From NCBI GenBank assembly GCA_965205025.1, contig CBDBFU010000002.1, positions 128,001-192,000 of the forward strand: a stretch of 64,000 nt of DNA, written 5' to 3'. Under the pieces are notes generated by a model that saw only the letters and a list, made by a program, of their open reading frames with translations, did not search any database and had not been told where the DNA came from. This document shows, in pieces, positions 17,458 to 56,085 of this stretch. The translations under genes were made by a program, and so were the position numbers. Numbering within the stretch: position 1 is the stretch's first letter; each line of letters starts with the position of its first letter. The DNA is from Candidatus Poribacteria bacterium (GTDB taxonomy: Bacteria > Poribacteria > WGA-4E > WGA-3G).

Positions 17458-17621
17458 CAGGACTTACGCAGTTTGTGAAGAAAATAGGAGATTTTAGTCA
17501 AAAAATCCGACAATTAAGTACTTTTTGTTTTTTAACCCCCTAAAGAATCAACGGTATGAATGCCTTAGGGCATTCCCCGCCCCTTATCAGGGGAACTTTA
17601 AGAGGAAATGCGTAAGTCCTG
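17458..17621. mobile_element. MITE-like family B copy carrying an inserted ~35-bp micro-element
   Basis: CAGGACTTACGCA..TGCGTAAGTCCTG. GAATCAACGGTATGAATGCCTTAGGGCATTCCCCG (17545-17579) interrupts the CCCCCTAAA/CCCCTTATC motif. Confidence 0.75.
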
Positions 17622-18130
17622 TTTCTTCAATAAATATACTTTAGGTAAATCCGAAAGGGTCATTAGTGTAGTGAGAATAAACTGTAAATCGGTAAATTCT
17701 GATTGGATTTATTTGTAATTGAGATTTCATTGGTGTTTATTATAGTGGCAAAGAGTTTACGCACCTATGATCTGATTTCAAGGGTATTGAAACAACGATA
17801 ACCAACTTACAAGTCAATGCAATACTGCTCGGATACGCGATCGTGACATTGGGATTTATTACACGATTGAGCAATGAGTTTTCTGGTTTTACATTAGGTG
17901 TATTCCTGAATCAATGTTAGGTCGTCCATTGATGTCGTTCAAATATATGATCATAGCATAAGACAAAATAGAAATATCAAACTTATTACAAAAAGTTAGA
18001 TAGGACAAGTCTTGAGTTTAATATTGACATAATATTACCATCATGTTATGATTATCCAAAATTGAATTAGTCTAAGAATATCTATTGCGCGCATCTCACC
18101 TTAAGATTTCTTAAATTCTGAATTAATATT

Positions 18131-20086
18131 ATGATTACTTACAAAGAATGGAATAAAGCACTTATTTCCTATTTTTTTGAAAAACGAGAACCTGGGGAAA
18201 TAGTCTTTCTACACACGACTTCTGAAACATTACCTGATATTGTGAAGCATGCAGGTTTTGATGTTGCGGATGCTGAAGAAAGTTTGAAGGAAACAGTAAG
18301 AAAACAGGTTATATTAAACAGAATCATTCCTACCGATGAGATTTGGCTTCGCAGGATCTCTCCTGCAGAAAAAGAACCTCCGCACATGGCTTTCCTTGCC
18401 CTTTGTGTACTCGCTGCAAGTAATATGGAAAAATCTGAAGAAGCCTCTCATACCAATTATTATGTGCAATTAAACAAACTACTGTTTGACAAATCGAATG
18501 GAGGAAAACCAAAAGGACTCAAATATCAAGATTGGGAAGAAAACTGGATATATCTCCAAGATTGGGTGAAAGATAAGCATGACGTAGAACTATATCTGAC
18601 AGAAGGTCATCCAAAGTATGTTTGGTATCCGATTTCGCAATGTCTGATTAGTAAATATGACGAACATAAACTTCATACTATTTTTAAGGAAGCTAAACTG
18701 AAACCTGGAGCATACCTTGCCGAGAAACAACTTTTTGACATACTTCGTATAAGCAAATATTTTCAAAATCTTTCAGTGAAAATAAAACGACCTTTAGAAC
18801 AAAAAACTGCTGAAATCCGATTGATTTTAGGTCAAGTCCAATTGCTTTTAGAAAACTGGGATGGTATAGTACAGGAGAGAAAGAAAATCGGATGGGCAGA
18901 AGAACGTAAGACTTACATAATTGATGTCCAACTAAAATTCAATCCATTCAGATCCGAACAAATTGATCAGCTTCGCTACTGGTTTAGATGTAGACGAAAC
19001 CCTCAAATTACTTTCAAAGCCAATTCACTAAACGTAAAAACTCTACAGTCAGATGATGGCAAGTGGTTTGAACCATTCGTTGTGGATGCTGATATTTCAA
19101 CACTCCAAGTACTGCAAAAAGGTATTGATATCAGATCTGAAGAAGCAAAATCGTTAACTTATCAGTTAAAACCTAACAATATTTGGGTTTTCCGGAACGA
19201 ATCAGAACCAGATGAAGGTTGGTTTAGCAAAGGGAACCTTTTGCTACACGAAGACCACCGTATAGTATTTCGCAAAGAACGTCGTAATCGAGTCACATCA
19301 ATATTGGAAATTGTATGCGAACCATTTAATCCGCCACAATCAATTTACATTGACCGTGAAGAAACAAATTGGCAATTTGTTGATGTTAAGCCAACAGTTT
19401 TAGCCAAATCAGATATTTTAGGATATCGTATAACGACATCAGAGCAAATTAGTTTTGTTGGTGGATTGCCTTTAGACAGACGAAAAAACCAATATTTTGA
19501 CTTTTGCCTTCCTACGATTGTTGTTCCTGACTACTATACAGTATCCGATGAACCTCTTTATTTCAATGGTAAAGCAATGAATGTACCAAGTAACCGAAAA
19601 ATTGTGCTTACTAAGAAACTTGATCCGGGTGAATATGAACTCTCCTATCTAATAAATTCTCGACCAAAATTGCGCGTTGTTTCTCTCAAACGCTCATGTG
19701 ATTTTGAAACTCAAACCTTTGTAATCAATATTGATCTTAATTCTAAGGATCCTCCTTTTTTCAAGGAATGTAATCTTGCCGAGATTTCAGATGATTCAAA
19801 ATTATGGCTTTCAGGAGCGAAGTTTTTTGGAGAAGACAAAATCCCGCGCTTGCCAAATGGTGGCAAAGGAGTATCTGCTTTGTCTGCTGCTGAACTTGTC
19901 TCGTCAATTGTGAAAGTCGCAATGGAACTAAAGCAGGATAATATTGATCTTCCAGAGTGGTTAAACAACGCAATGAATATTCTAAATCAAGACATAGCAT
20001 TACAAGCACTCGTAAAAAAGAAACTATATGATTACCGAGAAATTGCCCTGTCATATCAAGAACTCTCCGCTTTGGGAGGTGATTGA
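18131..20086 (+). CDS. Druantia-like accessory protein 1 (resembles N-terminal part of DruH/DruF/DruC-type proteins)
   Basis: First gene of a coupled operon upstream of a DruE-like helicase; Y.EWN.AL..YFF, FLALCVLAAS, YV.YPISQCL, FVGGLPL motifs. Family assignment is from recall. Confidence 0.6.
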   Translation: MITYKEWNKALISYFFEKREPGEIVFLHTTSETLPDIVKHAGFDVADAEESLKETVRKQVILNRIIPTDEIWLRRISPAEKEPPHMAFLALCVLAASNMEKSEEASHTNYYVQLNKLLFDKSNGGKPKGLKYQDWEENWIYLQDWVKDKHDVELYLTEGHPKYVWYPISQCLISKYDEHKLHTIFKEAKLKPGAYLAEKQLFDILRISKYFQNLSVKIKRPLEQKTAEIRLILGQVQLLLENWDGIVQERKKIGWAEERKTYIIDVQLKFNPFRSEQIDQLRYWFRCRRNPQITFKANSLNVKTLQSDDGKWFEPFVVDADISTLQVLQKGIDIRSEEAKSLTYQLKPNNIWVFRNESEPDEGWFSKGNLLLHEDHRIVFRKERRNRVTSILEIVCEPFNPPQSIYIDREETNWQFVDVKPTVLAKSDILGYRITTSEQISFVGGLPLDRRKNQYFDFCLPTIVVPDYYTVSDEPLYFNGKAMNVPSNRKIVLTKKLDPGEYELSYLINSRPKLRVVSLKRSCDFETQTFVINIDLNSKDPPFFKECNLAEISDDSKLWLSGAKFFGEDKIPRLPNGGKGVSALSAAELVSSIVKVAMELKQDNIDLPEWLNNAMNILNQDIALQALVKKKLYDYREIALSYQELSALGGD

Positions 20087-21915
20087 CTGTGTATATAAAA
20101 CAATATCCTGAAGAAAAGCGAAAGATATTAGCTGAACATAGCACTAAGAATATTGATGATTTCGTAAAATTTTTGGAAGAAATTAAAGGTATAGAGGCAT
20201 CATATCTACAAAAGATGCTTACTCCTCCAAAAGGTTTTCCCAAAAATAAAAAACTAAAAACAGAAACAAGACACTATCTATTTAAGCAATTCATTTCCAA
20301 ATTGGTAGGAGAAAAAGATTTCTCTAATCCTGACTCTGACGTTTGGAATAAGTTTGGGCAGATTTTCAGATGGTGGGTCAAATCACAATCCGAACTTTTC
20401 AAAATACTTGAGGATTTTAAAAATGATGAGGATTTTGAGGAAAATGATAAGTCAGTTGAACCTAATAGTGTCCTTGATATCAAGTGTTTTGAAATCCTAC
20501 TCAAAGCAAATCGCAAACTCCAAATAAATCAGGAAATAATCCGGCGTTTTTACCAGTTCGGATATTTCCTCAAAGATGAACAAATTGAAGATCTTATTGA
20601 TAATGCTTTAACTCAAGAAGACATTGATCACAAGTGGAGAATAAAGGAACTTCCTGACAAGGTTGATGAATTATCTGAAACGATCTCGGATATTAAATCT
20701 CGTGTCTCTGCCGTGGAGTCTGCTAATGAATTGAAGCAGGAACTGAATGAACAAATTACAGGGTTAAGCAAATCCTTTGAGGATAATATCCAGAAACTCA
20801 ACGAACAAATTACAGAAGTCAGTGAAGCACTTAATGAAAAAATATCTAAAATAGAATTGAGTCAAACCAGTGATTTATCTAACCAGATTAATTCATTTAA
20901 ATCTCAGTTCACCGAGCTTAAAAAATCGGTTAGTAAGCTTGAAGATAAACGCCAAACAACTGAAGTGCCGCGAATTGCTAATCAAGCCGTAGAGATTGGA
21001 GAAAAAGCTGCTTCATTAATTAAAAATCGAAAAAAAACTAAAAATGAAAAAGATTACTTGAAAGCATTTAGTATCCCCCTCTGGCTTCTTGGAATTACTA
21101 ATCCTGAAGATTCTATTAAGACTGAAGCTATTCATATTGCGTTAAAGGCTTTTTCTGTTATAGAAATTCCTGACACACGAATTATTAACGCATGGAAAGC
21201 TGCTTGTGGTAACAACTTACACATCACAACACTTGATGTAGGAATGGGTTGGCTTGATTCACAAGATTGGTTTCCCAAACTTTTTTCTGAAATATGTTTT
21301 GGAGAACAATTAAGGCAAATGGATCTTGATGTTTCTGTAGAGGAAATGATAAACAAGGGTAATTTTTTATGGGCAATTCACTTAAATAATTACGACCGTT
21401 CATTTCCAGAAAGTTATCTACCCAGATTTCTAAAATGGTTGGGAGAACGCAAAGCCTTTGCTAAAGTCTTCGTAACGCGATGTCACAGTGAGAATCGTTG
21501 TAAAACCAGTTTTGAGGTATATAATGAAGTGGGTCAACTACCTAAACCCACAAAAACGCTGTCTATTAATCCGACAACACTACCGGATACTGATGCTATT
21601 ATTGATAAATCAGTTTGGGGAAAGTGGTGTCAGCCATCTGAGGAGACATTGTATAAAACAGAGGTTCAATTCTTGGACAAATTACAATCAGAAATAGAGA
21701 ATATCCCTTTATCACTTTTTCAGGACATCCAATCTTACCTTCTATTATCACATCAGATTATTGATCCTGATAAAGCCCTTGACTGGGCGTTATACTTACG
21801 CCTATGTCCTTGGATTGATGGTAGAACCAAAATTGAGGATGGTTTGTTTAGCTTAATCAACCAAGTCGATCTGGATCTACCGAAAACCAGGGCAGTTCTA
21901 CAGGAAAATTTTTAA
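20083..21915 (+). CDS. Coiled-coil protein with degenerate McrB-like AAA+ domain
   Basis: TTG start overlaps upstream TGA. Central coiled coil (~aa 190-290). DVGMGWLDSQDW and IHLNNYDRSFPESYLPRFL resemble McrB V..xW.D and LDE.NL..E.Y..FL, but there is no Walker A. Confidence 0.6.
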   Translation: MTVYIKQYPEEKRKILAEHSTKNIDDFVKFLEEIKGIEASYLQKMLTPPKGFPKNKKLKTETRHYLFKQFISKLVGEKDFSNPDSDVWNKFGQIFRWWVKSQSELFKILEDFKNDEDFEENDKSVEPNSVLDIKCFEILLKANRKLQINQEIIRRFYQFGYFLKDEQIEDLIDNALTQEDIDHKWRIKELPDKVDELSETISDIKSRVSAVESANELKQELNEQITGLSKSFEDNIQKLNEQITEVSEALNEKISKIELSQTSDLSNQINSFKSQFTELKKSVSKLEDKRQTTEVPRIANQAVEIGEKAASLIKNRKKTKNEKDYLKAFSIPLWLLGITNPEDSIKTEAIHIALKAFSVIEIPDTRIINAWKAACGNNLHITTLDVGMGWLDSQDWFPKLFSEICFGEQLRQMDLDVSVEEMINKGNFLWAIHLNNYDRSFPESYLPRFLKWLGERKAFAKVFVTRCHSENRCKTSFEVYNEVGQLPKPTKTLSINPTTLPDTDAIIDKSVWGKWCQPSEETLYKTEVQFLDKLQSEIENIPLSLFQDIQSYLLLSHQIIDPDKALDWALYLRLCPWIDGRTKIEDGLFSLINQVDLDLPKTRAVLQENF

Positions 21916-21925
21916 GAGGTGGTCA

Positions 21926-22819
21926 ATGCGTCAGAATCGTACACGTTTTTTAGATGAATTACTTTACTACCTTTCACATCTCGGTAAGATGCCTTGGGTA
22001 AAGTTTAAACAAGGAATTGAATGCCTAAATAGAGATAACAAGAATCCCCAAAGTGACTCCTTTTACCTTAAATCTCTTGCCTCTGTCGGACACTTGGAAT
22101 ACGATCCTGCGATATTAGATTGGGTTTATGTTGCTCCTCCGGTCCTTGTAGAAACTGCCACTCCAAACCAGTATGTTCTTGCCGGTAGTAGAACACCGGA
22201 CTTCATTTCTAAAATAGAGAAAACTGCATTATCAAATGGCGGGAAGTTACATCGTATTCAAGAAGTTGTTCCTGTTACCACAATTGTTTTGCGTGATTTG
22301 AACGAAGCGTCTATAAAGGAGATTGAAGGATGTGGTGTTCATATTAGCATTAAATTCTCCAAGAAATTGTCTTGTATCCTCCCCAATTTACGTTTAAATA
22401 GTTTTGCGCCAGATGAGTCTATGCTAAGTACACCAATTGAGAAATTTAACATTGAGACGTTGAAGTATGAAAATAATTCTTCAAATATATCTGAAGGTCT
22501 CTTTCGCATAATGAATCATGGACGTTATACACACTTCTTAAAATTGAACAATATTCAACGAATAGTACCACCAGAATGGGGGGCATGGTTAATACTTCGT
22601 GCCTTTCGCAAATCCAAATTAATATATTACAAAAAAGAACAGAACATCTTGCAGGTGAAGTTTCCACTGACTTTACCATTATTGGCAAACCGATGTGCGG
22701 TGCTCTGCTCTGGACACATACCTACATTGAAAAATGGGTTTTATTGTTACCGCAATGTCCCGATTGAGATAGCAGACAACATAGCCAAATCACTTAACCA
22801 ACAACTTGAGGAACAATAA
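21926..22819 (+). CDS. Druantia-like accessory protein 3 (resembles DruD / C-terminal part of DruH)
   Basis: GAGGTGG RBS; LASVGHLEYD..VAPPVLV..YVLAGSRT and LPLLANRCAVLCSG..P..Y.NVP..IA..IA.SL; TAATG overlap with the helicase. Confidence 0.6.
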   Translation: MRQNRTRFLDELLYYLSHLGKMPWVKFKQGIECLNRDNKNPQSDSFYLKSLASVGHLEYDPAILDWVYVAPPVLVETATPNQYVLAGSRTPDFISKIEKTALSNGGKLHRIQEVVPVTTIVLRDLNEASIKEIEGCGVHISIKFSKKLSCILPNLRLNSFAPDESMLSTPIEKFNIETLKYENNSSNISEGLFRIMNHGRYTHFLKLNNIQRIVPPEWGAWLILRAFRKSKLIYYKKEQNILQVKFPLTLPLLANRCAVLCSGHIPTLKNGFYCYRNVPIEIADNIAKSLNQQLEEQ

Positions 22820-25800
22820 TGACAGATCCTTTTGATATTTCTAATAAACTACGTGAATCCTATATTCGATATATTGAAACGGCTTTTAAGTTCAACAGTC
22901 CATCTTTAGAACAGAAGCCTGTTTTAGAACAGGAACGTCGAGCACTACTACAAAAAGAAGGCATGATTTATCAAGAACCACTCTTTGAACCGATTCTCCC
23001 TCCTAATTCGTCAGAGAAAACGCTATTCCAAGTTTGTTCTAATCTTGGAATCTCAAAAGATATTGCAGAATTCTTGGCTGCAGGTGGTGAAGAAGGACTT
23101 GCCCCGAGAACACGGAAACTTTACAAAAACCAATTTAAAGCAATAAAGGCTTCGTTAATTGACAAGCGAGATGTTGTTGTTACTACAGGAACGGGTTCTG
23201 GTAAAACAGAGTGTTTTCTTTTACCTATATTTAGTCAATTGGTCATGGAATCAAAAAATTGGCAACCATATGGAGACCGAAAACCTAAACCTTGGACGGA
23301 AAAAGGAAAAAGACAACGGGATGGTGAACACAAAGATAGACAGGCGGCGATTCGTGCACTAATTTTGTATCCGTTGAATGCACTGGTTGAGGATCAGTTA
23401 ATGCGGCTTCGCGGGGCGTGTGATAGTCCTAATGCTCATAAGTGGCTTGATGAGAACCGTGATGGGAATCGTTTTTATTTTGGACGTTACATTGGTTCAA
23501 CCCCTGTCGCAGGATCTGAGGAAAGAGATTACAAACGCATATTATTACGTGAAGAATTAAATAAATTATATGAACAAGCAAGACAAATTAAAGCCCAGGT
23601 TCAAAAGACAGATGATCAAAACATTCGTTACTATTTTCCACTAATGGAACCAGATACGGCAGAAATGTGGTCGCGTTGGGATATGCAGGATTATCCACCG
23701 GACATATTAATTACAAATTATGCGATGTTAAACATCATGTTAATACGAGATTTAGAGGAATCAATCTTTGAGAAAACGCGCGAATGGTTAGAAAAAGACG
23801 ATAGCGTTTTCTATCTTGTTGTAGATGAATTACATTCTTATCGTGGAACATCTGGGACGGAAGTTGCCTATCTGTTAAGAACACTGTTTTCTCGTCTTGG
23901 TCTTGAACCTGATTCGCCAAAATTGCGAATAATAGCGAGTAGTGCATCTTTAGAAGGAGAATATGGAGATAAATATCTCAAACAATTTTTTGGAAGAAGT
24001 AGCAGTTTTGAGCGAATTACTTCAGATCCAATTTGTGCTTCAGACGAACCGCTTCGCGAGTGTTTGAAACATGCAGATGCATTTAAGACGTATGATGAGG
24101 GATACAAGGATACAGAATTACCCGTCAAACCTGAAATGCTTAAAGAAGCGGTAATTAGACTCTGCAATCAAAATGAAAAATTACTTGCGTCAAAGATAGA
24201 TCAAATGGTTACTGTTGCAAAGGATGTCGTAGGAGAGGAAATTTCAGAACAAACTATTCGCGGTATGATTCGTTATCTAATTCGTCAGAAGAACCCTCAG
24301 GAACCTGAACAAGCACTTCTGCCGTTGCGTACACATTACTTATTCAAGAATTTTGAGGGGATATGGGTATGTAGTAATCAAGCATGTAGTGGGGTCGAAC
24401 ACGCTGAACAACGTCCTCCAATAGGTAAGTTGTTCTCAGCTCCGAAAACTCTCTGTGATGATTGTGGGTCGCGCGTGTTGGAGTTGTGGGCATGTCAAAC
24501 ATGTGGTGATCTGTTTTTAGGTGGCTATAAAAGACCAGTTTCTAAAGATCCACTAGACGGTTGGTGGCTTAGTGGTGACTTCCAACAGTTGGAAGGTTTG
24601 CCAGAACGTAATATCAAAGATCGGAGATATAGCAACTATGCCATTTTTTGGTTGGGGACAGAAAAGCCGAAACAACCCCAACCCTGGTGGAGGAAAAACG
24701 GAATTAAAAGAAAATGGACAAAGGGACAATTTGACTCATTTCGTGGTGTTCTTAAACCCAAACCATCTGAAAATAACTGCTACTTTTATAAAATTTTCGA
24801 AAACGAATTGAATAAGAATGACACAGATAAATGTTCAGAAGTCCCAAAATACTGTCCAAAATGTGGAGACTTTTGGGATTTTTTGTCGGAACGGTTTATT
24901 GGTGGTAAGGAAGAGGCTGTCTCACCAATCCGTAAAATGGGAACAGGATTGCAAAGGGTACTTCAAGTTCTCGTTCAGACCTTGCAAAATTCAATTGATG
25001 ATGAAAATAAACGCAAAACGATTGTTTTTTCTGACAGCCGAGGTGACGCTGCTAAATTGTCAGTAGGTATAGAGTATTCACATTACTTAGACATGATACG
25101 TTCCATTACGGTCAAGTCTTTAGACGAAGTGGAAGAAAGCCCTGATTTGATGACGATTCTTGATGCTATTCAAGGTAAAGAAATAGATCATGTCAAGTTT
25201 TATGAGGCACTCGGTCGAATTGCCGGAATGCCGGGATGTGAAGGTACCTTAATTCATTCCATTAACGAGGCATCTACGAAAAATGAAAGTTTAACTGAAG
25301 AACAAGAAACCCAACTTCGCTCCTTGTTCTCCGATTACTCTTTTATAAAACTTGAAAACAGCGTTTTTGATCGTTTTATTAATCTTGGAATGAATCCTGG
25401 AGGTTATGGTATAAAAGTTGATGGTTACTCACAACAAGTAAAAGATGGTGAAGAAGTGCGCAGATGGGTGGAACTATTTGATTGGTCTGAAAATACAGTA
25501 TCAAGAAAAGAATTCGAAGGTTTGAGTGATCCTCAAAAGGACCTCTTACGCAGAATTCAACAACAACTTCGTCAAACAATTACAGAACGTATTTTGTTTG
25601 CTCGTAGGGGAACAGGTTTAGAAGGACTCGGATTGGGGTGGTGTGAACCGAAAATTGATCCTAAACTATGGACAATTGATGAACTTGATGTAGCAGAAAT
25701 GATGTCAGCAGTCGTACGGATTCTTGGTGAGCGGAATCGGACAACACTCACTCATAAACCATATCCGGATATACCGGATTTCCTTAAGAAATACCTAAAT

Positions 25801-38587: not shown

Positions 38588-38960
38588 GAATCAAGGAATC
38601 CAGGAATCAAGGAATCAACGGTATGAATGCTATTTAGCATTCCCCGGGTATGAATGCTATTTAGCATTCCCCGGGTATGAATGCTATTTAGCATTCCCCG
38701 GGTATGAATGCTATTTAGCATTCCCCGGGTATGAATGCTATTTAGCATTCCCCGTGGTTAGAAACCGCACCATAGGCATCAATTTAGGGATACACCTTTC
38801 GCCCCGCGAATCAACGGTATGAATGACATATGAAGATTAATTTTTAAATTCGGTATTTTTGGAGAAATATCCAGTGCGGTTAGGAAACCGCACCTACCGG
38901 GTTTGGGAAAAAAAGAATTACCGAACTATTTACTTAATCTTCATTAGTCATTCACCGGGG
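38588..38960 (+). repeat. Nested micro-element stack: 4 heads plus 5x27-bp bodies, then a further copy interrupted by a 115-bp MITE
   Basis: GAATCAAG GAATCCAG GAATCAAG GAATCAAC (38588-38619) followed by (GGTATGAATGCTATTTAGCATTCCCCG)x5 (38620-38754). MITE ATGAAGATTAA..TTAATCTTCAT at 38830-38944. Confidence 0.85.
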
Positions 38961-44283: not shown

Positions 44284-44286
44284 AAT

Positions 44287-46353: not shown

Positions 46354-46414
46354 TGAAGTAGAGATTGATTCAAATTTGTCATTAAAGTCAATTTACTTTA
46401 ATAGGTATAGTATA

Positions 46415-46766
46415 AACATTCCGTCCCTACCAAATCAACGGTATGAATGCCATTTAGGCATTCCCCGGGACTCAGGATAAGTATTGCATAGTTTTTCTAT
46501 AAACATTCCGTCCCTACGGGACTCCATTTAGTGTATGATAACTTGTTATGTAATTGCAATAGTAGGTTTGTAGACATATCATAGAAAGAAATATATTCTA
46601 AAATTGACGCTTATGAATTAACGGTATGAATGCTATTTAGCATTCCCCGTGGTTAGGAAACCGCCAAATCAACGGTATGAATGCCTTAGGGCATTCCCCG
46701 TCTACAGGGTTTGGGAAATTAGAATTACCGAAATATTTTCTTAATCTTCATACAGTTTGTGCTACA
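46415..46766 (+). repeat. REP/MITE cluster with three single micro-element insertions
   Basis: Elements at 46431-46467, 46615-46649 and 46665-46700, inside CGTCCCTAC|GGGACT and GGTTAGGAAACCGC|..CTAC repeats. Confidence 0.8.
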
Positions 46767-46772
46767 AATGAA

Positions 46773-47003
46773 TTATTCAAAGAACTGAAGTTCTCTATCC
46801 TTGACGACCATTATAATCTGGTCATATAGTACGTCTCCGTCAGGATTGAAAGAGAACTTGCCTAACTTGCCTAAAATTGTAGGAATATCTGACGTTTTTG
46901 CGAGGGCGTCCTTAATGATAGTCGGATCTGTCGATTGTGCCACCTTAATTGCATTGGCAAGTACATAAAGGGTCACATACGACTGTGCCGCCCACGGTTC
47001 AGG
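46773..47003 (-). pseudogene. 3' remnant of a branched-chain amino-acid ABC substrate-binding protein gene, copy 2
   Basis: PEPWAAQSY..LYVLANAIKVAQSTD..IKDALA..GKFSFNPDGD..VVKD..F. No upstream part; near-duplicate of 47830-48060. Confidence 0.7.
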
Positions 47004-47020
47004 AGGCAGGTGTCAGTATA

Positions 47021-47431
47021 TTACCGATGATTATTACTCGGTCTTGGTGGAGGCGGGTCATTGAATTCTAAACCTTTTTTGATAGCGGCCTTTTTCCGTT
47101 TCTCCCAGTCGGCATACCATTCTTTGTAGGTTTCTTCGCGTCCCTGTTCAATACCCTGTTTAATGAGTCTGTCTCTTATTAACGTGTAGCGTATCATGAT
47201 AGCTCCTATTATCTCAAATGCCCCAATAACAACAAATATTGTATAATGAAAAAACGAGACTGATTCTTTCACAGTAACCTTAAGCGTCTCTAATATTGAT
47301 TCCGATGTTTGACTTTCATCTATCCAAATGATTACGGAATAGACCATTGTCGCGGTAAATATAATCAGTATCTCAAGAAATATCCAATCTACTCTCGCCG
47401 ATATCAACGGTGATCGTTCTTTTCTATTCAA
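47021..47431 (-). CDS. Hypothetical membrane protein
   Basis: Two TM segments followed by QGIEQGREE..WYADWEKR..PPPP tail. Confidence 0.6.
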   Translation of the reverse strand: MNRKERSPLISARVDWIFLEILIIFTATMVYSVIIWIDESQTSESILETLKVTVKESVSFFHYTIFVVIGAFEIIGAIMIRYTLIRDRLIKQGIEQGREETYKEWYADWEKRKKAAIKKGLEFNDPPPPRPSNNHR

Positions 47432-47586
47432 TTATTATTTCCCATCAAACTGTTACATACTTTAAAATATTATACCAAAATGTCTTGTAGTAAACAACTT
47501 GAGTTTGATATATGCTGGGATATAGCGATTTTCCCAAACCGGTATGTGGGATTAGGAAACCGCACCTATCGGGTTGGGAACATCCT

Positions 47587-47823
47587 AAATTGACGCTTAT
47601 GAATCAAGAAATCAACGGTATGAATGCCTTAGGGCATTCCCCGGGTATGAATGCTATTTAGCATTCCCCGTGGTTAGGAAACCGCCAAATCAAGGAATCA
47701 ACGGTATGAATGACATTTAGTCATTCCCCGGGTATGAATGCCTTAGGGCATTCCCCGCCTACCGGGTTTGGGAAATTAGAATTACCGAAATATTTTCTTA
47801 ATCTTCATACAGTTTGTGCTACA
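47587..47823 (+). repeat. Paralog of 46600-46766 in which both micro-elements are doubled (nested)
   Basis: 47601-47670: 2 heads plus 2 bodies; 47686-47757: 2 heads plus 2 bodies. Confidence 0.85.
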
Positions 47824-47829
47824 AATGAA

Positions 47830-48213
47830 TTATTCAAAGAACTGAAGTTTTCCATCCTTGACGACCATTATAATCTGGTCATATAGTGCGTCTCCGTCAG
47901 GATTGAAAGAGAACTTGCCTAACTTGCCTAAAATTGTAGGAAAATCTGTCATTTTGTGCAAGTACGTCCTTAATAATTGTCAGATCTGTCGATTGTGCCA
48001 CCTTAATTGCATTGGTCAGTACATAAAGCGTCGCATACGACTGTGCCGCCCACGGTTCAGGTTGAATACCATATTTCGTCTGATAATTTCGAACGAAGGT
48101 TTGGTTTCCGGGTGGGTCAGATGTATTAGACCATCCACTAAAACCTATTGTCCCTTCGGCGGCATCGCCAGCCTTTTTGACTTCATTCATAGTTAGATCA
48201 GGAACAATAGTGC
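47830..48213 (-). pseudogene. 3' remnant of a branched-chain amino-acid ABC substrate-binding protein gene, copy 1 (frameshift ~47952-47955)
   Basis: AGDAAEGT..FV.NYQ.KYG..PEPWAAQSY. Begins directly after the stop of the upstream gene. Confidence 0.7.
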
Positions 48214-48214
48214 T

Positions 48215-48859
48215 TTAACGTCTCTCCTTTCCCTTCTTATTCATGAAAAAATGCATCCCCAAACCCCAGCAGAAGCCTGCTACCAACCAGAGTGGCAACT
48301 GAAAAACAAACAACATCATCAAATCCCACTCTTCTCCATTCAAGACATTCCACACCTCCGGAATAACCCCCATAATCAACCACATCAATCCACCCCAAAA
48401 GAAAATGCCTCTCAAATACCAATTTATGTCCACGGCTTGAATCAACGGACGTTCAAGAACTTTTGCCAATCTTGCTTTTTCTTTCTCTATCCATCTATAG
48501 CGGAAGAACCGAGCAGGAAAATACCACAGTGGATAGGTAACCGCCAAGACAGCATAACTACTAATGCTCCATAGACACGGAATTATTTGATAGCAATTTG
48601 GACAAATAAACCCAAACCAATGTCCAAATGCATTTCCTTTACTCCATATACGACCATCATTTAGTGTTTCACAGTGAGGGCATGGAATATAATTTCGCTC
48701 AGCAAAAGGTGCATCGCTCTCTTTGTCTATCAACGTCACCTTTGGGAGTCGTTGTCCCAAAATCAGTTCGTTGATTATAATAACCGGATTCAATATCCAG
48801 AATAAGACCAGAGGGTGAGATAGTGTCCATATTTGGTATCTGTTTTTGTCGTATTGCAT
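48215..48859 (-). CDS. Hypothetical membrane protein with CxxC..CxxC zinc ribbon
   Basis: CPHC..CPNC; several Trp-rich TM helices. Confidence 0.65.
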   Translation of the reverse strand: MQYDKNRYQIWTLSHPLVLFWILNPVIIINELILGQRLPKVTLIDKESDAPFAERNYIPCPHCETLNDGRIWSKGNAFGHWFGFICPNCYQIIPCLWSISSYAVLAVTYPLWYFPARFFRYRWIEKEKARLAKVLERPLIQAVDINWYLRGIFFWGGLMWLIMGVIPEVWNVLNGEEWDLMMLFVFQLPLWLVAGFCWGLGMHFFMNKKGKERR

Positions 48860-48969
48860 CGGAGTTAATCTCCATCAAATGTATTTGTATTCCAAATAGC
48901 GCGGGGTTTAGCGTCTCTCTACAGATTTGTTGTCAACGGAGTAGCGTTTGTTTATTCATGACTTTCAAA

Positions 48970-49455
48970 TTAACTTGATAGTGTCTGCAGTTGTTTATGA
49001 AGGTTCGCCATTTCAATTGCGGTTACGGCTGCTTCTGCCCCTTTATTTCCTGCTTTTGTCCCCGCACGTTCAATAGCCTGCTCAATTGTATCTGTAGTAA
49101 TAACACCATAGATAACCGGAATACCTGTCTGTAATGAAACTTGTGAAATACCTTTTGCACTCTCACCTGCTACATAATCGAAATGGGGTGTGGCTCCACG
49201 TATTACTGCCCCGATACAGATAAGTGCATCATATCGTCCACTTTCAGCAAGTTGTTTAGCAATACTTGGAGTTTCAAATGCTCCGGGTATCCACACTACA
49301 TCAACGTCATCCAAATTACCTCCGTGACGTTTGAAGGCATCAAGTGCTCCATCCAAGAGTTTAGTTGTAATAAAACTGTTGAATCGGCTTACAATAATAC
49401 CGATTTTAAGCTCTGTACTATTCAAATTACCTTCATATATATTTGGCATATTCAT
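48970..49455 (-). CDS. ribH: 6,7-dimethyl-8-ribityllumazine synthase
   Basis: [33 protein letters not shown]. Confidence 0.96.
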
Positions 49456-49517
49456 TTCCTACGAATTTTCAACCTCAGAGTTGCTTAAGAATTGGTAATT
49501 TCTCCACTCAGACTCCA

Positions 49518-51722
49518 TTATTGAAGTCGGATTGCATCCCGTACGAGACCAATTAGTTCGTCTTGCTGTGGTGTGCGTTGACTTGTAAATGGGAAAAGCC
49601 CTTCAAGTGTCTGTTCAACAGCGTTTAAACTCCCGTTTTGTGCCCAATAACTTCTGCGAAGGATTTCTGCGAATTCAGCTACAGATGCTGCAAGTTGAAA
49701 TGAGGTGGATGCTTCTTCAAATGTTTCTTTAATTTCATTTGCAAAAATATCCTGACTAACTTCTGTAACAATACGAGTATCCGGATCTTCGTGTCGGATG
49801 AAAACAGTTGCGAGTTTACCGACAACCTGCTCAGTTTGCAGTTTAATTTCATAGAGAGCGGTCACACTATGTCCTGAACCGATTTCACCTGCGTCTACAC
49901 TGTCATCCCTGAAATCCTCCTGTCTAAGTCGGCGATTCTCATACCCGATCAACCGAAAGCGACTTACAGTCTGAGGATTGAATTCAACCTGAACTTTAGC
50001 ATCTTTTGCAATGACTTGCAGTGTCCCAGTCAAATTTTCTACAAAGACACGTTTGGCTTCTTTGAGTGTATCCACATAGGCGTAGGTCCCGTTTCCTTTA
50101 TTCGCCAGTTGCTCCATAAGAACATCGTTAAAATTCCCCATACCAAATCCGACTGTTGTCAGATAAATGCCATCTTTAACATAGTTCTCAATTTCAGCAA
50201 GGATTGCATCTGGTCCCGTGTGTCCAACATTCGCAACGCCATCTGAACAGAGAATCACACGGTTGATGTAATCTGGGTTAAAATTCTGAATTGCGAGTTG
50301 GTATCCTAATCGTAATCCATCTTCTGCATTTGTTGCCCCACCGGGATATAGGGAATTGATTGCAGCCAGTATGTGTTCTCGATTCACATTTCGCGTATGT
50401 GGTAGAACAACACTGGCGGTGGAACCGTATACAACGATACCTATCTCATCCTCTGGACGAAGTTCGTCAACAAGTAGCGTTAATGCCTGTTTTACCAATT
50501 CTAATCGGTTTTCCCTATTCATTGAACCTGAAATATCAATCACAAATGTTAGTTTAGCGTTTTTCCTATCTGCGTCTGGAACAACGTAACCTTGAATCCC
50601 AATTCGCAACAATTGTAGCCGTTTTCCCTCTCCGAATTTGGAAGGAGCACTTTCAAGATGTATAGCAAATGTTTCATCAGTGGGTGGTGTATAATTGTAA
50701 TCAAATGCGTTTACAAATTCCTCAACGCGCACTGCCTCTGGGGGTGGTAGGTTTCCATCTCGAAGGTAACGACGTAGGATAGAATAGGACGCGGTATCTA
50801 CATCCATTCCAAACGTCGAAAAAGCTTCATCCTCTGTATCAATAAACGGATTGGTACCATGTGCCTGAAAGAAAACATCGTCGTAAGCAGCACTATTCGG
50901 TGGGTTCAACACAATACCATCCGGATTTATTATAGGAGGAGTTGGAATTGAAGGAGGAGTTGGTATTGTAGCAACTAAACCAGTATCGGCAGGTTCCGCA
51001 ACCGTTGCTTCGATATCATATTCAATTTCTGGAATTACATCAAGCACTTCATGCTTAGGAACTGGAATCTTCTGTCCAAAATATTTGGCGACAAGAATCA
51101 AGTCCAAAATGTTGACGACTCCATCAGCATTGACATCAGTACGTGGATTTTCTAATGAAGGGGTTCCAAAGTTATTTGCTATCAGTGTCAAATCCTGGAT
51201 ATTTACAATATCATCTTGGTTTACATCTGCAGCGAGTAAAGCAGTAATCACAATCATTCCATCTATAGTTGTAACTGGTAACAACATCCCATTACTATCA
51301 AATAGAGATACCATCAGTAAAAGAATTGGAGAGGGTTTAACGGATACTACTTCAAAATTTAATGTCGCAAGTGCTCCGTTTTCAGCAGATGCACCATCTG
51401 GCGTTGAAGTCGCAGCTAATAAAACACTATCCCCTGTATTTAACAATGTAGAGGTAAAGGTCTTTGTAGGAAAGTGATCCGCATTTGCACTATCAACATA
51501 ACGAAGAGCAGTTGGATCAAATCCAATGACTAATTTATAACCCACAACGTCTTTACCACCTGTGATCTGAATGTTGATTTGCATCTGTTCTCCGGCTGCT
51601 GGAGACATAATTGTTTCTGGGTATACAGAAACGACAGTCTCACCGAAACCAGGACTTGCGAATGTGAGTCCGACAAAAACAAGAAAACAGAAAAAAAGGA
51701 TGTTCTTAAATATATTATTCAT
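49518..51722 (-). CDS. Secreted cohesin + dockerin + VWA (YfbK/DUF3520-type) protein
   Basis: Signal peptide; cohesin-like (FDPTALRY..GALATLNFEV); dockerin DVNQDDIVNIQDL / DVNADGVVNILDL; STFGMDVDTASY, DISGSM MIDAS, RLIGYENR, DAGEIGSGH. Confidence 0.85.
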   Translation of the reverse strand: MNNIFKNILFFCFLVFVGLTFASPGFGETVVSVYPETIMSPAAGEQMQINIQITGGKDVVGYKLVIGFDPTALRYVDSANADHFPTKTFTSTLLNTGDSVLLAATSTPDGASAENGALATLNFEVVSVKPSPILLLMVSLFDSNGMLLPVTTIDGMIVITALLAADVNQDDIVNIQDLTLIANNFGTPSLENPRTDVNADGVVNILDLILVAKYFGQKIPVPKHEVLDVIPEIEYDIEATVAEPADTGLVATIPTPPSIPTPPIINPDGIVLNPPNSAAYDDVFFQAHGTNPFIDTEDEAFSTFGMDVDTASYSILRRYLRDGNLPPPEAVRVEEFVNAFDYNYTPPTDETFAIHLESAPSKFGEGKRLQLLRIGIQGYVVPDADRKNAKLTFVIDISGSMNRENRLELVKQALTLLVDELRPEDEIGIVVYGSTASVVLPHTRNVNREHILAAINSLYPGGATNAEDGLRLGYQLAIQNFNPDYINRVILCSDGVANVGHTGPDAILAEIENYVKDGIYLTTVGFGMGNFNDVLMEQLANKGNGTYAYVDTLKEAKRVFVENLTGTLQVIAKDAKVQVEFNPQTVSRFRLIGYENRRLRQEDFRDDSVDAGEIGSGHSVTALYEIKLQTEQVVGKLATVFIRHEDPDTRIVTEVSQDIFANEIKETFEEASTSFQLAASVAEFAEILRRSYWAQNGSLNAVEQTLEGLFPFTSQRTPQQDELIGLVRDAIRLQ

Positions 51723-51773
51723 TAATCGTATTCTACCTATTATAATATTTGTGATTTAGATGCACCTGAGTAT

Positions 51774-52991
51774 TTAGAGAAGGTGCCCGAGTTTGGTACG
51801 TTTCGTTTGTAGATAATGTTTATTATGTGAGTTGGGAGTAGTTTGCAATGGGATTTGTTCAACGATTTCCAAGCCGTACCCGGATAATCCTTTGACTTTG
51901 TGAGGATTGTTCGTCATCAGTCGCATTTTTTTGACCCCTAAATCAACGAGAATTTGCGCCCCTATACCGTAGTCGCGCAAATCTGGTGGAAACCCAAGGC
52001 GTTCGTTCGCTTCAACAGTGTCCAACCCTTCATTATCTTGAAGATGATACGCCCGAATCTTGTTTTTAAGTCCCATGCCTCTACCTTCTTGTCGCATATA
52101 TAGTAATACACCTCTTCCCTCTTTCTCTATATTTCCAAGGGCAATTTGGAGTTGCTCACCACAATCACAACGGAGTGAACCGAAAACATCGCCGGTTAAA
52201 CATTGCGAATGCACCCGAACTAAAATAGGTCCTTCATCAGCAATTATGCCTTTCGTTAAAGCAACGTGTGTGTCAGCTGGTTCCCCTGGTGTTGGAACCC
52301 CATCAACGTTGCTCTCATAAGCGTGAAGTTTAAATTCTCCTTGTTCAGTAGGGATTGTGGCTGTTGAAACCTTTTTAATAAGCGTTTCGGTGTGTCTACG
52401 ATATGCGATAAGGTCTGAAATAGTAATAATCTTTAGATTATGTTTCTGTGCAAATTCGATTAATTCTGGTACGCGCGCCATTGTTCCATCATCATTGAGT
52501 ACTTCACATAAAACACCTGCGGGATAGAGACCTGCGAGTCGTGCTAAATCGACTGTAGCCTCTGTATGTCCAGCGCGTCGGAGTACGCCTCCGGGTTGTG
52601 CTTCAAGTGGAAAGATATGTCCGGGTCTAACAAAATCGGATGGTACAGCATCTTCATCTACAAATTTGCGTATGGTAAAAGCACGTTCCTGTGCAGAAAT
52701 TCCGGTGGTAACTTCTTTGGCATCAATTGTCACAGTGAATGCGGTTTGCATCTGTGCGGTGTTATCCATCACCATGGGATTAAGCTGAAGTTCTGCGAGG
52801 CGTTCTGTACATGTTGGGAGACATATAAGTCCGCGCCCGTATTTTGCCATGAAGTTGATGGACTCGGCAGTCACCTTTTCGGCAGCCATAATGAGATCAC
52901 CTTCATTTTCGCGATCCGGTTCATCAACAACAATGATCATTTCTCCATCTTTAATGGCAGAAAGGGCATCAGGGATAGTACTAAAATTCAT
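51774..52991 (-). CDS. ribBA: Bifunctional DHBP synthase / GTP cyclohydrolase II
   Basis: [56 protein letters not shown]. Confidence 0.96.
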
Positions 52992-53014
52992 AATGTAGTC
53001 TCGCCTTCGTTTCT

Positions 53015-53659
53015 TTAACCGTAACCATGTTTTTGTAAAAATTCTAAATCTAAAGTCTTTGGGGGTGTCACTTGGTTTCGCATTAGTGTTTCAACGTATC
53101 GTGCCATTACATCAACTTCTATGTTCACAACGTCACCAGGTTGCTTTTCACCAAAGGTTGTAACTTGTAAGGTATGTGGAATTAGCGCGACTTCAAATTT
53201 ATCTTCAAGAACGTTTGCTATTGTAAGACTTACACCATCAACAGAAATTGAACCTTTATATGCAATATAAGGCTTTACACTTTCGCCTACAGTAACCCCC
53301 ATGATTACTGATGTGCCTTCGTGTATCCATCCACTGATAGTAGCTACTTCATCAATATGTCCTAATACCAAATGTCCACCAAGTCGGTCTTCTAATCGTA
53401 GGGAGCGTTCCAGATTTACCTGTGTGCCAACTTTACAGGAGCGTAAGGTGGTTTTGCGACAGGTTTCTTCACTGATATCAGCAATAAATCCATCCGTTTC
53501 AAGTTCTCGAACAGTAAGGCAAGGTCCGTTAACAGCAATACTATCCCCAATTTTGGTATCTTCAAGAATAGTTTGTGCGTTGATCTTAACAGTTACGCCG
53601 CTGGATTGTGTATGTATTTGAGAAATCGTACCAATTTCCTCAATTATCCCTGTAAACAT
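53015..53659 (-). CDS. ribE: Riboflavin synthase alpha chain
   Basis: [44 protein letters not shown]. Confidence 0.95.
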
Positions 53660-54762
53660 TTCTTAGTGATATATCCTTCAATCAGTAAGTCATTGTCAAG
53701 TTGTGTGACTGAAAGCCTTTGTAGTTCAGGAGCATCTATTAATCGCTTAATTCCATCTCCATTTATTATTCCTGGAGCCTTTCTTCCGCCAATGATTTTT
53801 GGAGCAATAAAACACATGACTTTATCCACCTCACCTGATTCTAATACACTTGCATTAACTTTTCCACCACCCTCGACTAACACACTTGTTATACCTCGTG
53901 CTCCTAATGTTTGCATCAAGGTTTTAAAACAGACCCGTCCGTCTTTGTCGGGAATGACAATTACTTCAGCATGCCTCTCTTTGAGTTGAGCGATCTTTTC
54001 TTTCGGTGCATGTGGTGTAACAGCGATGATTACCTCTGCCAGACTATTGGGATTGATAACTCTTGCCGTTAAAGGTGTTCGTGCATGCGAATCTAAAACT
54101 ATCCGTATTGGATCTTTTCCCTTCTTATTTGGGAGTCTCGTGGTTAGAACAGGATCATCGCTTAGAATTGTTCCAATACCGACAATAATGGCATCTACTT
54201 GATCCCGTATTTCATGTGCCTTTTCACGTGATGCTTCCGATGTAATCCATTGCGATTCACCCGTCGAAGTTGCGATTTTACCATCAAGACTCATCGCCGT
54301 TTTTAATATGACAAACGGGTATCCAGTGGAAATATGTTTAATATAGACTTCATTCAGAGTTTCCGCAGCTTCGGCACATACGCCTACGGCGGTCTTTATA
54401 CCTGCCGCCTCTAACTCTTTTATACCCTTTCCTGCAACTTTTGGATTTGGATCTAAATGTGCGAGATAAACATTGGCAATTCCAGATTTGATGATCGCAT
54501 TTGTGCAAGGAGGTGTTCGTCCCCAATGGCAACATGGTTCAAGGTTGACATAGAGAGTTGCACCTTGTGCATTCTCTCCCGCTGCATCTAAAGCGTGAAT
54601 TTCGGCATGTGGTCCACCGGCTTTTTTATGATACCCTTCAGCTATTATCTTTCCGTCCTTAACGACCACTGCACCGACAAGCGGATTTGGACTTGTACGT
54701 CCTTTTGCTAACTCTGCTAATGTAAGTGCGCGATTCATAAAGGTAATGTGCGACTCGTTCAT
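53644..54762 (-). CDS. ribD: Riboflavin deaminase/reductase
   Basis: PNPLVGAV, HAE, LEPCCHWGRTPPC, SLDGKIA, VEGG. Confidence 0.96.
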   Translation of the reverse strand: MNESHITFMNRALTLAELAKGRTSPNPLVGAVVVKDGKIIAEGYHKKAGGPHAEIHALDAAGENAQGATLYVNLEPCCHWGRTPPCTNAIIKSGIANVYLAHLDPNPKVAGKGIKELEAAGIKTAVGVCAEAAETLNEVYIKHISTGYPFVILKTAMSLDGKIATSTGESQWITSEASREKAHEIRDQVDAIIVGIGTILSDDPVLTTRLPNKKGKDPIRIVLDSHARTPLTARVINPNSLAEVIIAVTPHAPKEKIAQLKERHAEVIVIPDKDGRVCFKTLMQTLGARGITSVLVEGGGKVNASVLESGEVDKVMCFIAPKIIGGRKAPGIINGDGIKRLIDAPELQRLSVTQLDNDLLIEGYITKKCLQG

Positions 54763-54997
54763 TGTACTGCTTCACCTACAATGCTGTACGCGTCTTATAG
54801 TATACCACACATTCAGCGTAATTCAAAATCATTTGTCCACTGTGGGTATGTAAAGTTTTTAGCATGAATATCACGGAATCATAGGGTTCTTTTTCCTTGG
54901 CATATATTATATTGAACCAAGGGTAATTGTTCCGTAAATTTATTGTTTTTTAGCGATCCACATGTGTAATATAATTATTATTTATATGTTTAAATTG

Positions 54998-55340
54998 TTA
55001 CACTTTTTGTCACATGGTGTGACATTGATAAAACCTCTATCCCGTCAGTACTATACTATGTTTATAGCCATTTTTTTAAGGTTACGAGAATTTGTCAAAA
55101 TGACGGATTTGTGTCTTTTTCTATTCTCCTCATCCATTGAAATCGGATCGTATAAACGTGAAATATCTTAACAGTCAATTTTGACAAGATATTCGAGTTT
55201 ATCTCATAAATCATAGATTTGGAGGATTCATCGATCTTGCAATGTATAATATATTGAAAATTCGGACGGGGAGACCCCGTCCCTACGAAGAGGAACTGTA
55301 TTAATATGATACTCTGTAGTAAAATGAAAAAGTTACACTT
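54998..55340. repeat. Dispersed ~340-bp non-coding repeat, copy 2
   Basis: Colinear with 16434-16780; includes an intact REP GGACGGGGAGACCCCGTCCCTAC that is degenerate in copy 1. Confidence 0.75.
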
Positions 55341-55689
55341 TTCGTTACATGGTGTAACTTTGTAATATTGCTCTAATCCCTGTGGTGAACTGGGTTTATG
55401 ATAATTTTCTTGAAATTTAAGAATTTTGAGTTTTGTGTCATTTTCTGGTTTTACTGAATTTCCTGACCACTGAAACCATTCGCTATTTTTTCTATGTCTT
55501 ATTGTATTTTTATGAAGATTTTGGATTTTCATTTTTCCTCTTCCTATTTATTGCTCTATCTTCATTCTGTAGATGTGAATTCTGTTTAGTGTGTATCTCA
55601 TATCTAAAGACACACGGGTATCTTCAATAGACCTGTCTACGAGATGTTTATAGAAAATCATACGTCTAATGAGAACTCCACCTATATGT

Positions 55690-56085
55690 TGATATAGACA
55701 TTCCGTCCCTACGGGACTCATTCGCTTAATTGATCCGTTTTCTATAGACATTCCGTCCCTACGGGACTCAAAACCAATAAATCATAGTCTAAATTGACGC
55801 TAATGAATCAACGGTATGAATGGTATTTAGCATTCCCCGTGGTTAGGAAACCGCCAAATCAAGAAATCAACGGTATGAATGCTATATAAAGATTAATTAT
55901 TTAATTCGGTAGTTTTGGAGAAATATTCAGTGCGGTTAGGAAACCGCACCTACCGGGTTTGGGAAAATTAGGATTATAGAACTATTTATTTAATCCTCAT
56001 ATAGCATTCCCCACCTAACGGGTTGGAAAATTAGAATTACCGAAATATTTACTTAATCCTCATACAGTTTGTGGTACATTAAAGA
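55690..56085 (+). repeat. REP / micro-element / MITE composite
   Basis: 2x CGTCCCTACGGGACTCA; micro-elements at 55805 and 55855; 115-bp MITE (55886-56000) inside the loop of the second. Confidence 0.8.

Follow-up and report, generated by a model that had tools for sequence, protein, structure and literature searches.

A ~35-nt tagged hairpin unit found within REP-like repeats and within itself in a Candidatus Poribacteria genome

The DNA analysed here, called the window throughout, is a 64,000-nt stretch of a Candidatus Poribacteria genome (contig C2, positions 128001-192000; the genome, G000, comprises 5.66 Mb in 33 contigs and is 95.5% complete). It carries a short repeated unit that consists of an 8-nt head, RAATCAAC, and a 27-nt body forming an imperfect hairpin, ~35 nt in all. 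With up to two mismatches allowed, the pattern AATCAACGGTATGAATG was found at 11 places in the window, all on the + strand; ten of them were exact and the one at 46616 had a single mismatch. The expectation from shuffled sequence was 0.01 matches, and none of 100 shuffles reached 11. The body start, GGTATGAATG, had 17 exact copies in the window, every one on the + strand. An earlier note on this DNA had described the unit as 17 bodies at 11 sites, and the pattern counts bore this out, with coordinates that agreed to within 1-2 nt. Seven of the sites are single units (17545, 29634, 46432, 46615, 46666, 55805 and 38808, the last of which bears a MITE, or miniature inverted-repeat transposable element) and four are multi-copy sites (Table 1). 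The host contexts, junctions and stacks described below support the view that the unit is a defined segment of ~35-37 nt, which was inserted both into copies of itself and into hosts of six or more recurrent kinds.

The structure of the unit was investigated in an alignment of 49 distinct units, taken from the window and from ~40 loci of other genomes. The head core AATCAAC was invariant, as was a G-TAT spacer between this core and the stem. The stem had 7 bp with the consensus GAATGCC/GGCATTC, and two outer G-C pairs closed it across an internal loop in which TAT lies opposite one base. Pairing was kept in 99.3% of 441 cells, with an extraction pattern that pinned the three outer stem positions and left the four varying ones free. 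Five of the nine pairs showed changes on both sides, for example from U-A to C-G or G-C and from C-G to A-U or U-A. None of 500 shuffles reached any of the five covariation measures, and pairing fell to 27-54% when the structure was slid by 1-3 columns. The stem covariation described in the earlier note was thus confirmed. As single-stranded DNA the unit had a folding energy of -5.8 kcal/mol (z -4.1), and its head took no part in pairing.

The repeats in which the unit lies were recovered in their empty form by joining both flanks of each array and searching the genome with the result. The host REP-A (REP, repetitive extragenic palindrome) was entered between CATTCCGTCCCTAC and GGGAC, REP-B between TTCGCCCCGC(T) and GGGGC, and a host referred to as context C between CCCCCTAAA(TC) and CCCCTTATC. 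REP-D, a GTGCGGTTAGGAAACCGCAC CCTACCGGG hairpin, was occupied at three positions, namely in the loop, at the 5' foot and just 3' of the hairpin, and the CGGAGTTCCCTCCTACAGAAG repeat was a further host. Altogether, 144 arrays lay in six recurrent contexts and at least 30 lay elsewhere. The genome held 169 empty and 32 filled copies of REP-A, 118 and 46 of REP-B, and 90 and 29 of the REP-D loop. The orientation of the unit relative to the host was nearly fixed, at 32:0 in REP-A, 46:1 in REP-B and 29:1 in the REP-D loop. The window also held empty forms of all four hosts quoted in the earlier note, which numbered 7, 1, 2 and 2 and lay exclusively on the + strand; the empty host of the unit at 17545, CCCCCTAAATCCCCCTTATC, was present at window position 12560 and in 42 exact copies genome-wide. 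The label REP given to the hosts in that note was appropriate for those that contain GTAG and flank genes of the REP-associated tyrosine transposase (RAYT) type; GTAG was found on the complementary strand of REP-A, REP-D and the CCTACAGAAG repeat.

One G or C opens the inserted piece, which continues with RAATCAAC and the body and ends in CCCC(G). No target duplication was present at any host junction inspected, in agreement with the earlier claim. The accompanying claim that 1-2 host bases are lost had to be modified: 0-2 bases were replaced in general, including the four quoted hosts, but ~5-6 were replaced where the unit sits at the 5' foot, within the 5' arm of a GTGCGGTT..AACCGCAC hairpin. 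The target was no single fixed word, and 7 of 12 right flanks read by eye started with GG. When the filled REP-A copy at window 29621-29678 was folded as DNA, the host stem was retained and the 8-nt head was looped out. In the same fold the host TACC paired with the unit GGTA, the head appeared as a small loop and the whole formed a three-way junction.

Table 1. Positions of the tagged hairpin units in the window.
Feature	Position	Strand	Remarks
Single unit, head 17545-17552 and body 17553-17579	17545..17579	+	Flanks CCCCCTAAA left, CCCCTTATCAGGGG right
Single unit in REP-A hairpin loop	29634..29669	+	Flanks CCGTCCCTAC / GGGACT; empty REP-A copies next at 29710, 29761
Array of 4 heads (38588-38619, one is GAATCCAG) and 5 identical bodies (38620-38754)	38588..38754	+	
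Unit in REP-B loop, body split by MITE	38808..38957	+	Flanks TTCGCCCCGC / GGGGCTT
Single unit in REP-A loop	46432..46467	+	Empty REP-A at 46509
Single unit, head variant GAATTAAC, at 5' foot of GGTTAGGAAACCGC hairpin	46615..46649	+	
Single unit directly 3' of GGTTAGGAAACCGC hairpin	46666..46700	+	Junctions GGAAACCGC / C..G / TCTAC
Nested stack, heads GAATCAAG and AAATCAAC, 2 different bodies	47601..47670	+	
Nested stack, heads AAATCAAG and GAATCAAC, 2 different bodies	47687..47757	+	
Single unit, stem mismatch GAATGGT..AGCATTC	55805..55839	+	
2 heads (55856-55871) and one MITE-split body	55856..56013	+	MITE ~55886-56000; right half ends CATTCCCCA, 56005-56013

At the multi-copy sites heads were followed by bodies. 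Across the genome 243 arrays were parsed; heads and bodies were equal in number in 174 (152 with one of each, 21 with two and one with three), heads exceeded bodies in 46 and bodies exceeded heads in 23, where the head excess is partly an effect of parsing in which MITE-split and GAACG..CGTTC bodies go uncounted. Head and body counts were correlated (Spearman 0.46), which is the outcome of the genome-wide tabulation that had been suggested as a test of slippage. The arrangement (head)n(body)n proposed for these sites was found at 47601 and 47687, each with two heads and two bodies, but not at 38588 (4/5) or 55856 (2/1), and is a tendency, not a rule. The base that follows the outer AATCAA in stacks is G, whereas it is C in single units; reading of the sites thus verified that outer heads end in G.

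Adjacent bodies differed in 27 of 32 pairs from 29 stacks, while random draws from the pool of bodies predict 14.6% identical pairs. Four of the five identical pairs came from the array at 38620-38754, the only stack of the genome with runs of identical bodies, which is most likely a local tandem duplication. Since slippage would leave nearly all neighbours identical, the mostly different bodies point to nested insertion, and support the earlier proposal that each new copy enters between the head and the body of an older one. In stacks within REP-A, the outermost body and head kept the form typical of single insertions in that host (AAATCAA- with GCCATTTAGGC), and the inner bodies varied, with six variants across eight stacks. 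This is the pattern predicted if new units enter between older heads and bodies. Some units also sat inside the loops of other units. Multi-copy arrays were present in other genomes (10 among 76 arrays at 80 loci, from independent assemblies), and stacks were also found in the closed chromosome of G020.

Several variants of the stacked form were observed. Bodies with a compensated GAACG..CGTTC stem were mostly inner units of stacks (7 of ~12; for example C7:227833, C14 (-) 227101 and C33 (-) 40066) and might form a subfamily adapted to the unit's own junction of head and body. Tandem arrays of head plus body with a 35-nt period occurred in two relatives, with seven, four and three copies (G107:C1:1044374-1044600, G013:C91:2469-2590 and G013:C94:358-444, respectively), and none was present in this genome. 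In G020, loci L165 and L178-L182 contained deep nested piles of the unit and a long-stem relative that has the same head and the same GGTAT..CCCCG frame; its 16-bp stem is GAATCATGGCGAATAC/GTATTCGCCATGATTC, and further heads at these loci lead into GCC- or GCT-type bodies.

The genome contained 316 exact GGTATGAATG body starts, of which 219 stood directly after GAATCAAC or AAATCAAC and ~55 directly followed the tail of another body. A compact hairpin followed 190 of the 316, in 27 variants, the commonest with 76 copies. The exact head-body junction had 220 copies, 219 outside long open reading frames (ORFs) and one inside. When one genome per species was scanned, a 17-mer of the unit was found in at least 85 stretches, and 75 of 80 among the matches listed had Candidatus Poribacteria titles. 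Within the phylum the exact 17-mer was present in 99 of 176 genomes, namely in all 40 of genus g1, to which this genome belongs, in 58 of 65 of genus g13, and in one single match elsewhere. Carrying genomes had between 1 and 424 copies; the reversed pattern, used as a control, had none. The spread from 1 to 424 copies between species of a single genus is what would be expected of mobile DNA. A metagenome scan with a 23-mer adjoining the 38588 array gave no matches. Five matches of the 17-mer in IMG/VR were rejected as chance, as the hairpin follows none of them.

The nearest species, G007, has a contig syntenic to the window, with shared blocks that are mostly 92-95% identical. All repeat clusters that hold the 11 window sites are missing from it, as are several genes beside them, and G007 bears 132 copies of the unit elsewhere in its genome. 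Site occupancy therefore turns over completely between close species. In four public sequencing runs covering window positions 38000-56500, contigs ended at the repeat clusters.

Copies of the unit were also oriented relative to each other. Neighbouring unit clusters in this genome lay on the same strand in 111 of 153 cases (77.6 +/- 6 expected; none of 5000 shuffles reached this value). Strand coherence was likewise present in REP-D, and units were co-oriented with nearby empty REPs in 127 of 162, 99 of 120 and 159 of 196 cases. Relative to gene strand the orientation of the unit was opposed (r -0.32), with 93 antisense and 43 sense copies in co-directional spacers. The GC skew of this genome was too weak to place the replichores. 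Units and several REP families kept their strand over at least 100 kb; on contig C2, 17 units on the + strand run from 58 to 230 kb and eight of the next nine are on the - strand.

The body variants were then compared with the hosts in which they lie. The commonest outer variant accounted for 17 of the 23 bodies in REP-A, 40 of the 46 at the 5' foot of REP-D, 10 of the 12 found in context C and 14 of the 29 found in REP-B. As the body variant depends largely on the host, most copies were probably multiplied as passengers of REPs and MITEs, so that the number of independent insertions would lie far below that of the copies. A passenger role was also apparent in G020, where most of 20 sampled copies lie in one hairpin of an IS630-type MITE (IS, insertion sequence). 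The reverse relation was found at 38808, where a ~115-nt MITE (38830-38944) occupies the unit's own loop and leaves body halves at 38816-38829 and ~38945-38957. The ends of this MITE match an IS of the genome with a 395-aa ORF that contains DDE_3 and HTH_32/HTH_29 domains. Minority body variants at one host position numbered at least nine in REP-B and at least seven in REP-A. Several variants at the same position, together with the diverse inner units of stacks, indicate repeated independent insertions, so that both own mobility and passenger spread appear to be at work.

The unit resembles REP sequences, among them GTAG-tagged ones, and their inverted doublets (REPINs), which are served by RAYT (Y1, HUH) transposases. 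Like REPs of 20-40 bp it is an imperfect palindrome outside genes, one end of which bears a conserved single-stranded tag, and it shares with them a lineage-specific high copy number and the lack of a target duplication (Bertels & Rainey 2011, PMC3116915; Di Nocera et al. 2013, PMC3733652). It also shares the genome with true REPtron-like loci. It differs from REPs and REPINs in its tag, AATCAAC with GGTAT; the consensus AAATCAACGGTATGAATGCC..GGCATTCCCCG has neither GTAG nor CGTC on either strand. Unlike in a REPtron, none of the RAYT-type genes examined has the unit on its flanks: the three RAYT1 genes are flanked by REP-A, RAYT2 of the relative G020 by GGTTCGGTT..AACCGAACC hairpins and a 222-aa gene by GTAGCGTAA.. 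repeats. Neighbouring units up to 300 nt apart were direct in 55 cases and inverted in 5, so the unit does not build doublets of the REPIN kind. The unit also nests at its own tag/hairpin junction, a behaviour of which no description was found in a search of the REPIN/RAYT literature, supplements aside. According to Di Nocera et al. (2013; PMC3733652), REP families are regularly inserted within other palindromes, and tyrosine transposase genes show no obvious correlation with them. The same report describes CGTC-tagged REPs that apparently have no dedicated transposase, with 8-9-bp stems that begin with A-T pairs and a short 3' tail. These and the unit are both tagged hairpin families without a cognate transposase gene, but tag and stem format differ, and nesting does not figure in the accessible description of the CGTC REPs (PMC3733652).

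Relations to other small elements were considered as well; searches of the literature on REP, MITE, palindromic or hairpin repeats of Poribacteria, and for a sequence word of the unit, found no paper on it, supplements aside. Elhai et al. are said to have described in 2008 the repeats SDR4-6 of heterocystous cyanobacteria as 21-27-nt, hairpin-capable, mobile-like sequences without target duplication. These SDRs reportedly lie within other repeats and within each other, and their enzyme is said not to be known. The unit is longer, has a separate 8-nt head and follows the head/body nesting rule. It belongs to another phylum, and no cyanobacterial title was found among the 80 matches listed for the 17-mer. 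According to two other reports, SDR5 enters HIP1 precisely between its third and fourth base (PMC4390886) and SDRs are known from Nostocaceae only (PMC5861425). SDRs were not mentioned in the review by Delihas.

IS630-type MITEs share spacers with the unit, and the two are mutually nested, with a MITE in a unit loop (38830-38944) and units in a MITE hairpin. Apart from its hairpin, however, the unit lacks terminal inverted repeats; it also shows no duplication of the TA type and has no transposase related to it. The ends of the IS630-type IS differ from the unit, and the parent IS of the MITE encodes a DDE_3 transposase. In the IS200/IS605 family, a Y1 enzyme reads hairpins and inserts the element in one orientation beside a short specific target, without target duplication. 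Fixed orientation (32:0, 46:1, 29:1) and the lack of target duplication are shared with derivatives of such elements, whereas the unit has one hairpin instead of two different ends and inexact junctions, and no replication-strand bias was found in the hit lists of three closed chromosomes. Since the unit lacks three defining REP/REPIN features (the tag, a flanked RAYT gene and inverted doublets), and since the unit has a single hairpin and is no MITE, it is best placed among elements of the REP/SDR kind, outside the described families.

Genes that could mobilise the unit were sought in the genome and its relatives. As the earlier note had stated, neither a Y1 transposase nor a reverse transcriptase is encoded in the window; Y1-type matches were found on contigs C27 and C13. 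Contig C27 carries three Y1 genes of identical type (RAYT1; NCBIfam IS200-type, 84 bits), each between inverted REP-A arrays. A 222-aa RAYT-like gene matched at C13:281598-281804 (locus L160:1477-2145, - strand) with 66.7 bits to REP_Tyr_transpos, below the cut-off of 80, and was missed by PF01797; its flanks are hairpin arrays of GTAGCGTAA(t/a)(c/g)TTCCAGATTGCG, direct downstream and inverted upstream. A third class, RAYT2 of G020, scored 123 bits to REP_Tyr_transpos and is flanked by REP-D-type hairpins. RAYT1 was present in 87 and RAYT2 in 83 of the 112 genomes of the family. An IS605-type TnpA/TnpB pair of a relative had no tblastn match in this genome.

These results suggest, with a probability of about 55%, that the unit is a REP-like non-autonomous insertion module which is mobilised in trans and today spreads mostly as a passenger. 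This reading builds on direct observations, namely the structure of the unit and its stem covariation, the coexistence of empty and filled hosts, the constant orientation, the nesting and a copy number that depends on lineage. The module would be a tagged hairpin, composed of a 7-8-nt single-stranded tag (AATCAAC), the GGTAT spacer, a 7-bp stem, two outer G-C pairs and an asymmetric internal loop. A segment of ~35-37 nt would integrate in one orientation and without target duplication, either at the junction between the loop and the 3' arm of hairpin repeats or at their foot. Its own tag/hairpin junction may be a preferred target, which would produce head-head-body-body stacks and the change from C to G after the outer AATCAA. 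Arrays with surplus heads may have lost bodies later by recombination between the longer direct repeats, or may have gained heads by slippage of the 8-mer. Most present-day copies would have arisen passively, when a REP/REPIN or IS630-type MITE that bears a unit was multiplied. Integration would act on single-stranded or extruded hairpin DNA. That a RAYT-like Y1 (HUH) transposase catalyses it in trans is the weakest step of the proposal, and we put this forward tentatively, as somewhat doubtful. Its plausibility comes from the Y1 transposases with flanking repeats of their own in this genome and genus, and from the co-orientation of units and REPs.

Several observations weigh against this reading. 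None of the three classes of Y1/RAYT-type genes examined was flanked by the unit, and each had its own repeat. Among eight inverted unit pairs 300-4000 nt apart, no transposase-like ORF was seen between the members, as judged by eye without a profile search. G107 (116 copies, on one contig), G004 (96) and G013 (104) had no match to PF01797 or to the three RAYT-type proteins, and G006 and G010 carry RAYT1 yet have just 1 and 9 copies of the unit. Junctions were imprecise, with 0-2 and up to ~6 host bases replaced and G or C as the first base, which is unlike the exact cuts of HUH enzymes. No strand coherence appeared in complete hit lists of the closed chromosomes G095 (37 of 77, 38.1 expected) and G003 (18 of 43, 21.0 expected) and of a subset of G020 (13 of 22, 12.2 expected); a replication-strand bias would be expected of single-strand transposition. 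Spacers were replaced wholesale between species, and no filled/empty difference of a single unit was resolved. The earlier suggestion of a non-autonomous mobile unit consequently stands as regards defined insertion without target duplication and lineage-specific copy number, but not as regards the assignment of an enzyme: mobilisation by a Y1/RAYT enzyme was weakened, because RAYT-type genes are flanked by other repeats and the abundance of the unit does not follow their presence. Bertels and Rainey argue that REPINs decay only over very long times once the RAYT is lost (bioRxiv 10.1101/2021.07.10.451892). Together with the missing correlation between transposases and REPs elsewhere, this makes the present lack of a Y1 gene weak evidence against a Y1 enzyme. 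When matches with up to two mismatches were compared with exact ones, their ratio was 1.30 in this genome, 1.55-1.86 in Y1-less genomes and 1.59 in G020; the higher ratio in Y1-less genomes is at most a faint sign of decay.

The unit might have no dedicated mobility and be copied from one hairpin repeat to another when stalled forks switch template or recombine through short homologies, and otherwise travel only as a REP/MITE passenger. The imprecise junctions with 0-6 replaced host bases would be explained in this way, as would the ties between body variant and host context, chimeric flanks that combine the left side of one host with the right side of another (C7:63853), and the persistence of units in genomes without a detected Y1 gene. 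Short similarities between unit ends and some hosts also fit; for example, the host GAGTTCCCTCC resembles the unit tail CATTCCCCG and the host GGAATCC reads as the pseudo-head GAATCCAG. Against this, units with the same pair of ends occur in at least six contexts that are unrelated to one another, the orientation relative to the host is strict (107:2 over three hosts), and head and stem are conserved in two genera with compensatory changes, which speaks for recognition that is specific to sequence and structure. We therefore regard template switching as unlikely, while giving it an appreciable share. A genuine mobile element whose tag and hairpin are recognised by a non-Y1 enzyme, housekeeping or of an undescribed family, appears improbable. 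In its favour, the abundance of the unit is unlinked to any of the three RAYT-type classes, the unit lacks the GTAG that several RAYT-flanking hosts possess, and it is confined to two genera while RAYT1 and RAYT2 also occur in unit-free sister genera. No candidate gene for such an enzyme was found in our searches, imperfect copies are somewhat commoner in Y1-less genomes, and the slow REPIN decay reported in the preprint cited above lessens the weight of a missing Y1 gene.

It was also considered that the unit is a selected functional motif, such as a site to which a protein binds or a hairpin that works as RNA or as a terminator, kept in many copies to the benefit of the host, and that its nesting is incidental. 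The near-exclusive intergenic position (219 of 220 copies), the stem kept through compensatory changes and the orientation opposed to neighbouring genes are compatible with this. A regulatory site would not be expected to insert into repeats and into itself or to form tandem and nested piles, nor does a range of 1 to 424 copies within one genus with absence from sister genera fit it, and no Rfam family matched the window; a functional motif is thus quite improbable. Copying of a small hairpin RNA or msDNA-like (multicopy single-stranded DNA) molecule by a reverse transcriptase, an enzyme that the earlier note had raised as acting in trans, has nothing in its favour but the smallness of the unit, its shape as a hairpin and its imprecise junctions. 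RVT_1 had no match in the 95.5%-complete genome, which leaves this idea unsupported and close to refuted. Finally, the stacks might be assembly artefacts or products of simple replication slippage, for which the five identical bodies at 38620-38754, the period-35 tandem arrays of two relatives and runs of identical 8-mers such as three copies of AAATCAAG could be cited. The predominance of differing adjacent bodies and the recurrence of stacks in independent assemblies of other species and in closed chromosomes make this hardly credible.

A bolder reading, which we consider unlikely, is that the unit is a minimal transposon of a new kind, a single tagged hairpin of ~35 nt that an enzyme other than the recognised RAYT-type ones cuts and pastes, or copies, with the unit's own tag/hairpin junction as a preferred landing site. 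If so, the nested stacks would record the cleavage point directly, no smaller self-targeting mobile DNA would be known from bacteria, and the unit would offer a tractable system for studying how SDR-like micro-elements move. Mobile DNA is usually held to need at least two ends and ~100 bp. To our knowledge, descriptions of elements that measure 20-40 nt and still enter defined sites are rare, and their mechanism is unsolved. With ~300 genome copies, the unit ranks among the smallest pieces of DNA whose behaviour resembles that of mobile elements. A probable cleavage point, directly behind AATCAA, can be read from the nesting rule, both empty and filled targets are plentiful, and there are three candidate enzymes. 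The nested-repeat piles mark the spacers at which entire genes and blocks of several genes distinguish this genome from its nearest relative; they probably shape the genome plasticity of these uncultivated sponge symbionts, and they also break short-read assemblies.

Additional differences from G007 were noted along the window. A 14-kb block at 15813-29849 (genes at ~18131-29421) is missing from G007:C22, and its borders are repeat-rich spacers with the units at 17545 and 29634. A 734-aa gene (49518..51722, - strand) is absent from G007, where 49462-51772 is missing, and two runs from related strains join 49453 to 51776. At 36058-36159, a ~103-nt insert with a GTCGCGACCAGGAGGTCGCTCCTACAGAAG hairpin repeat and direct ACTAATG flanks is absent from G007 and looks like a clean insertion with a 7-nt duplication. 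Close to it, at ~36590-36880, the 48-nt unit TTTTCTATAGACATAGCAATCCGCTGGAGTGCGAGAATATATCAATAG is present in six tandem copies, compared with one in G007.

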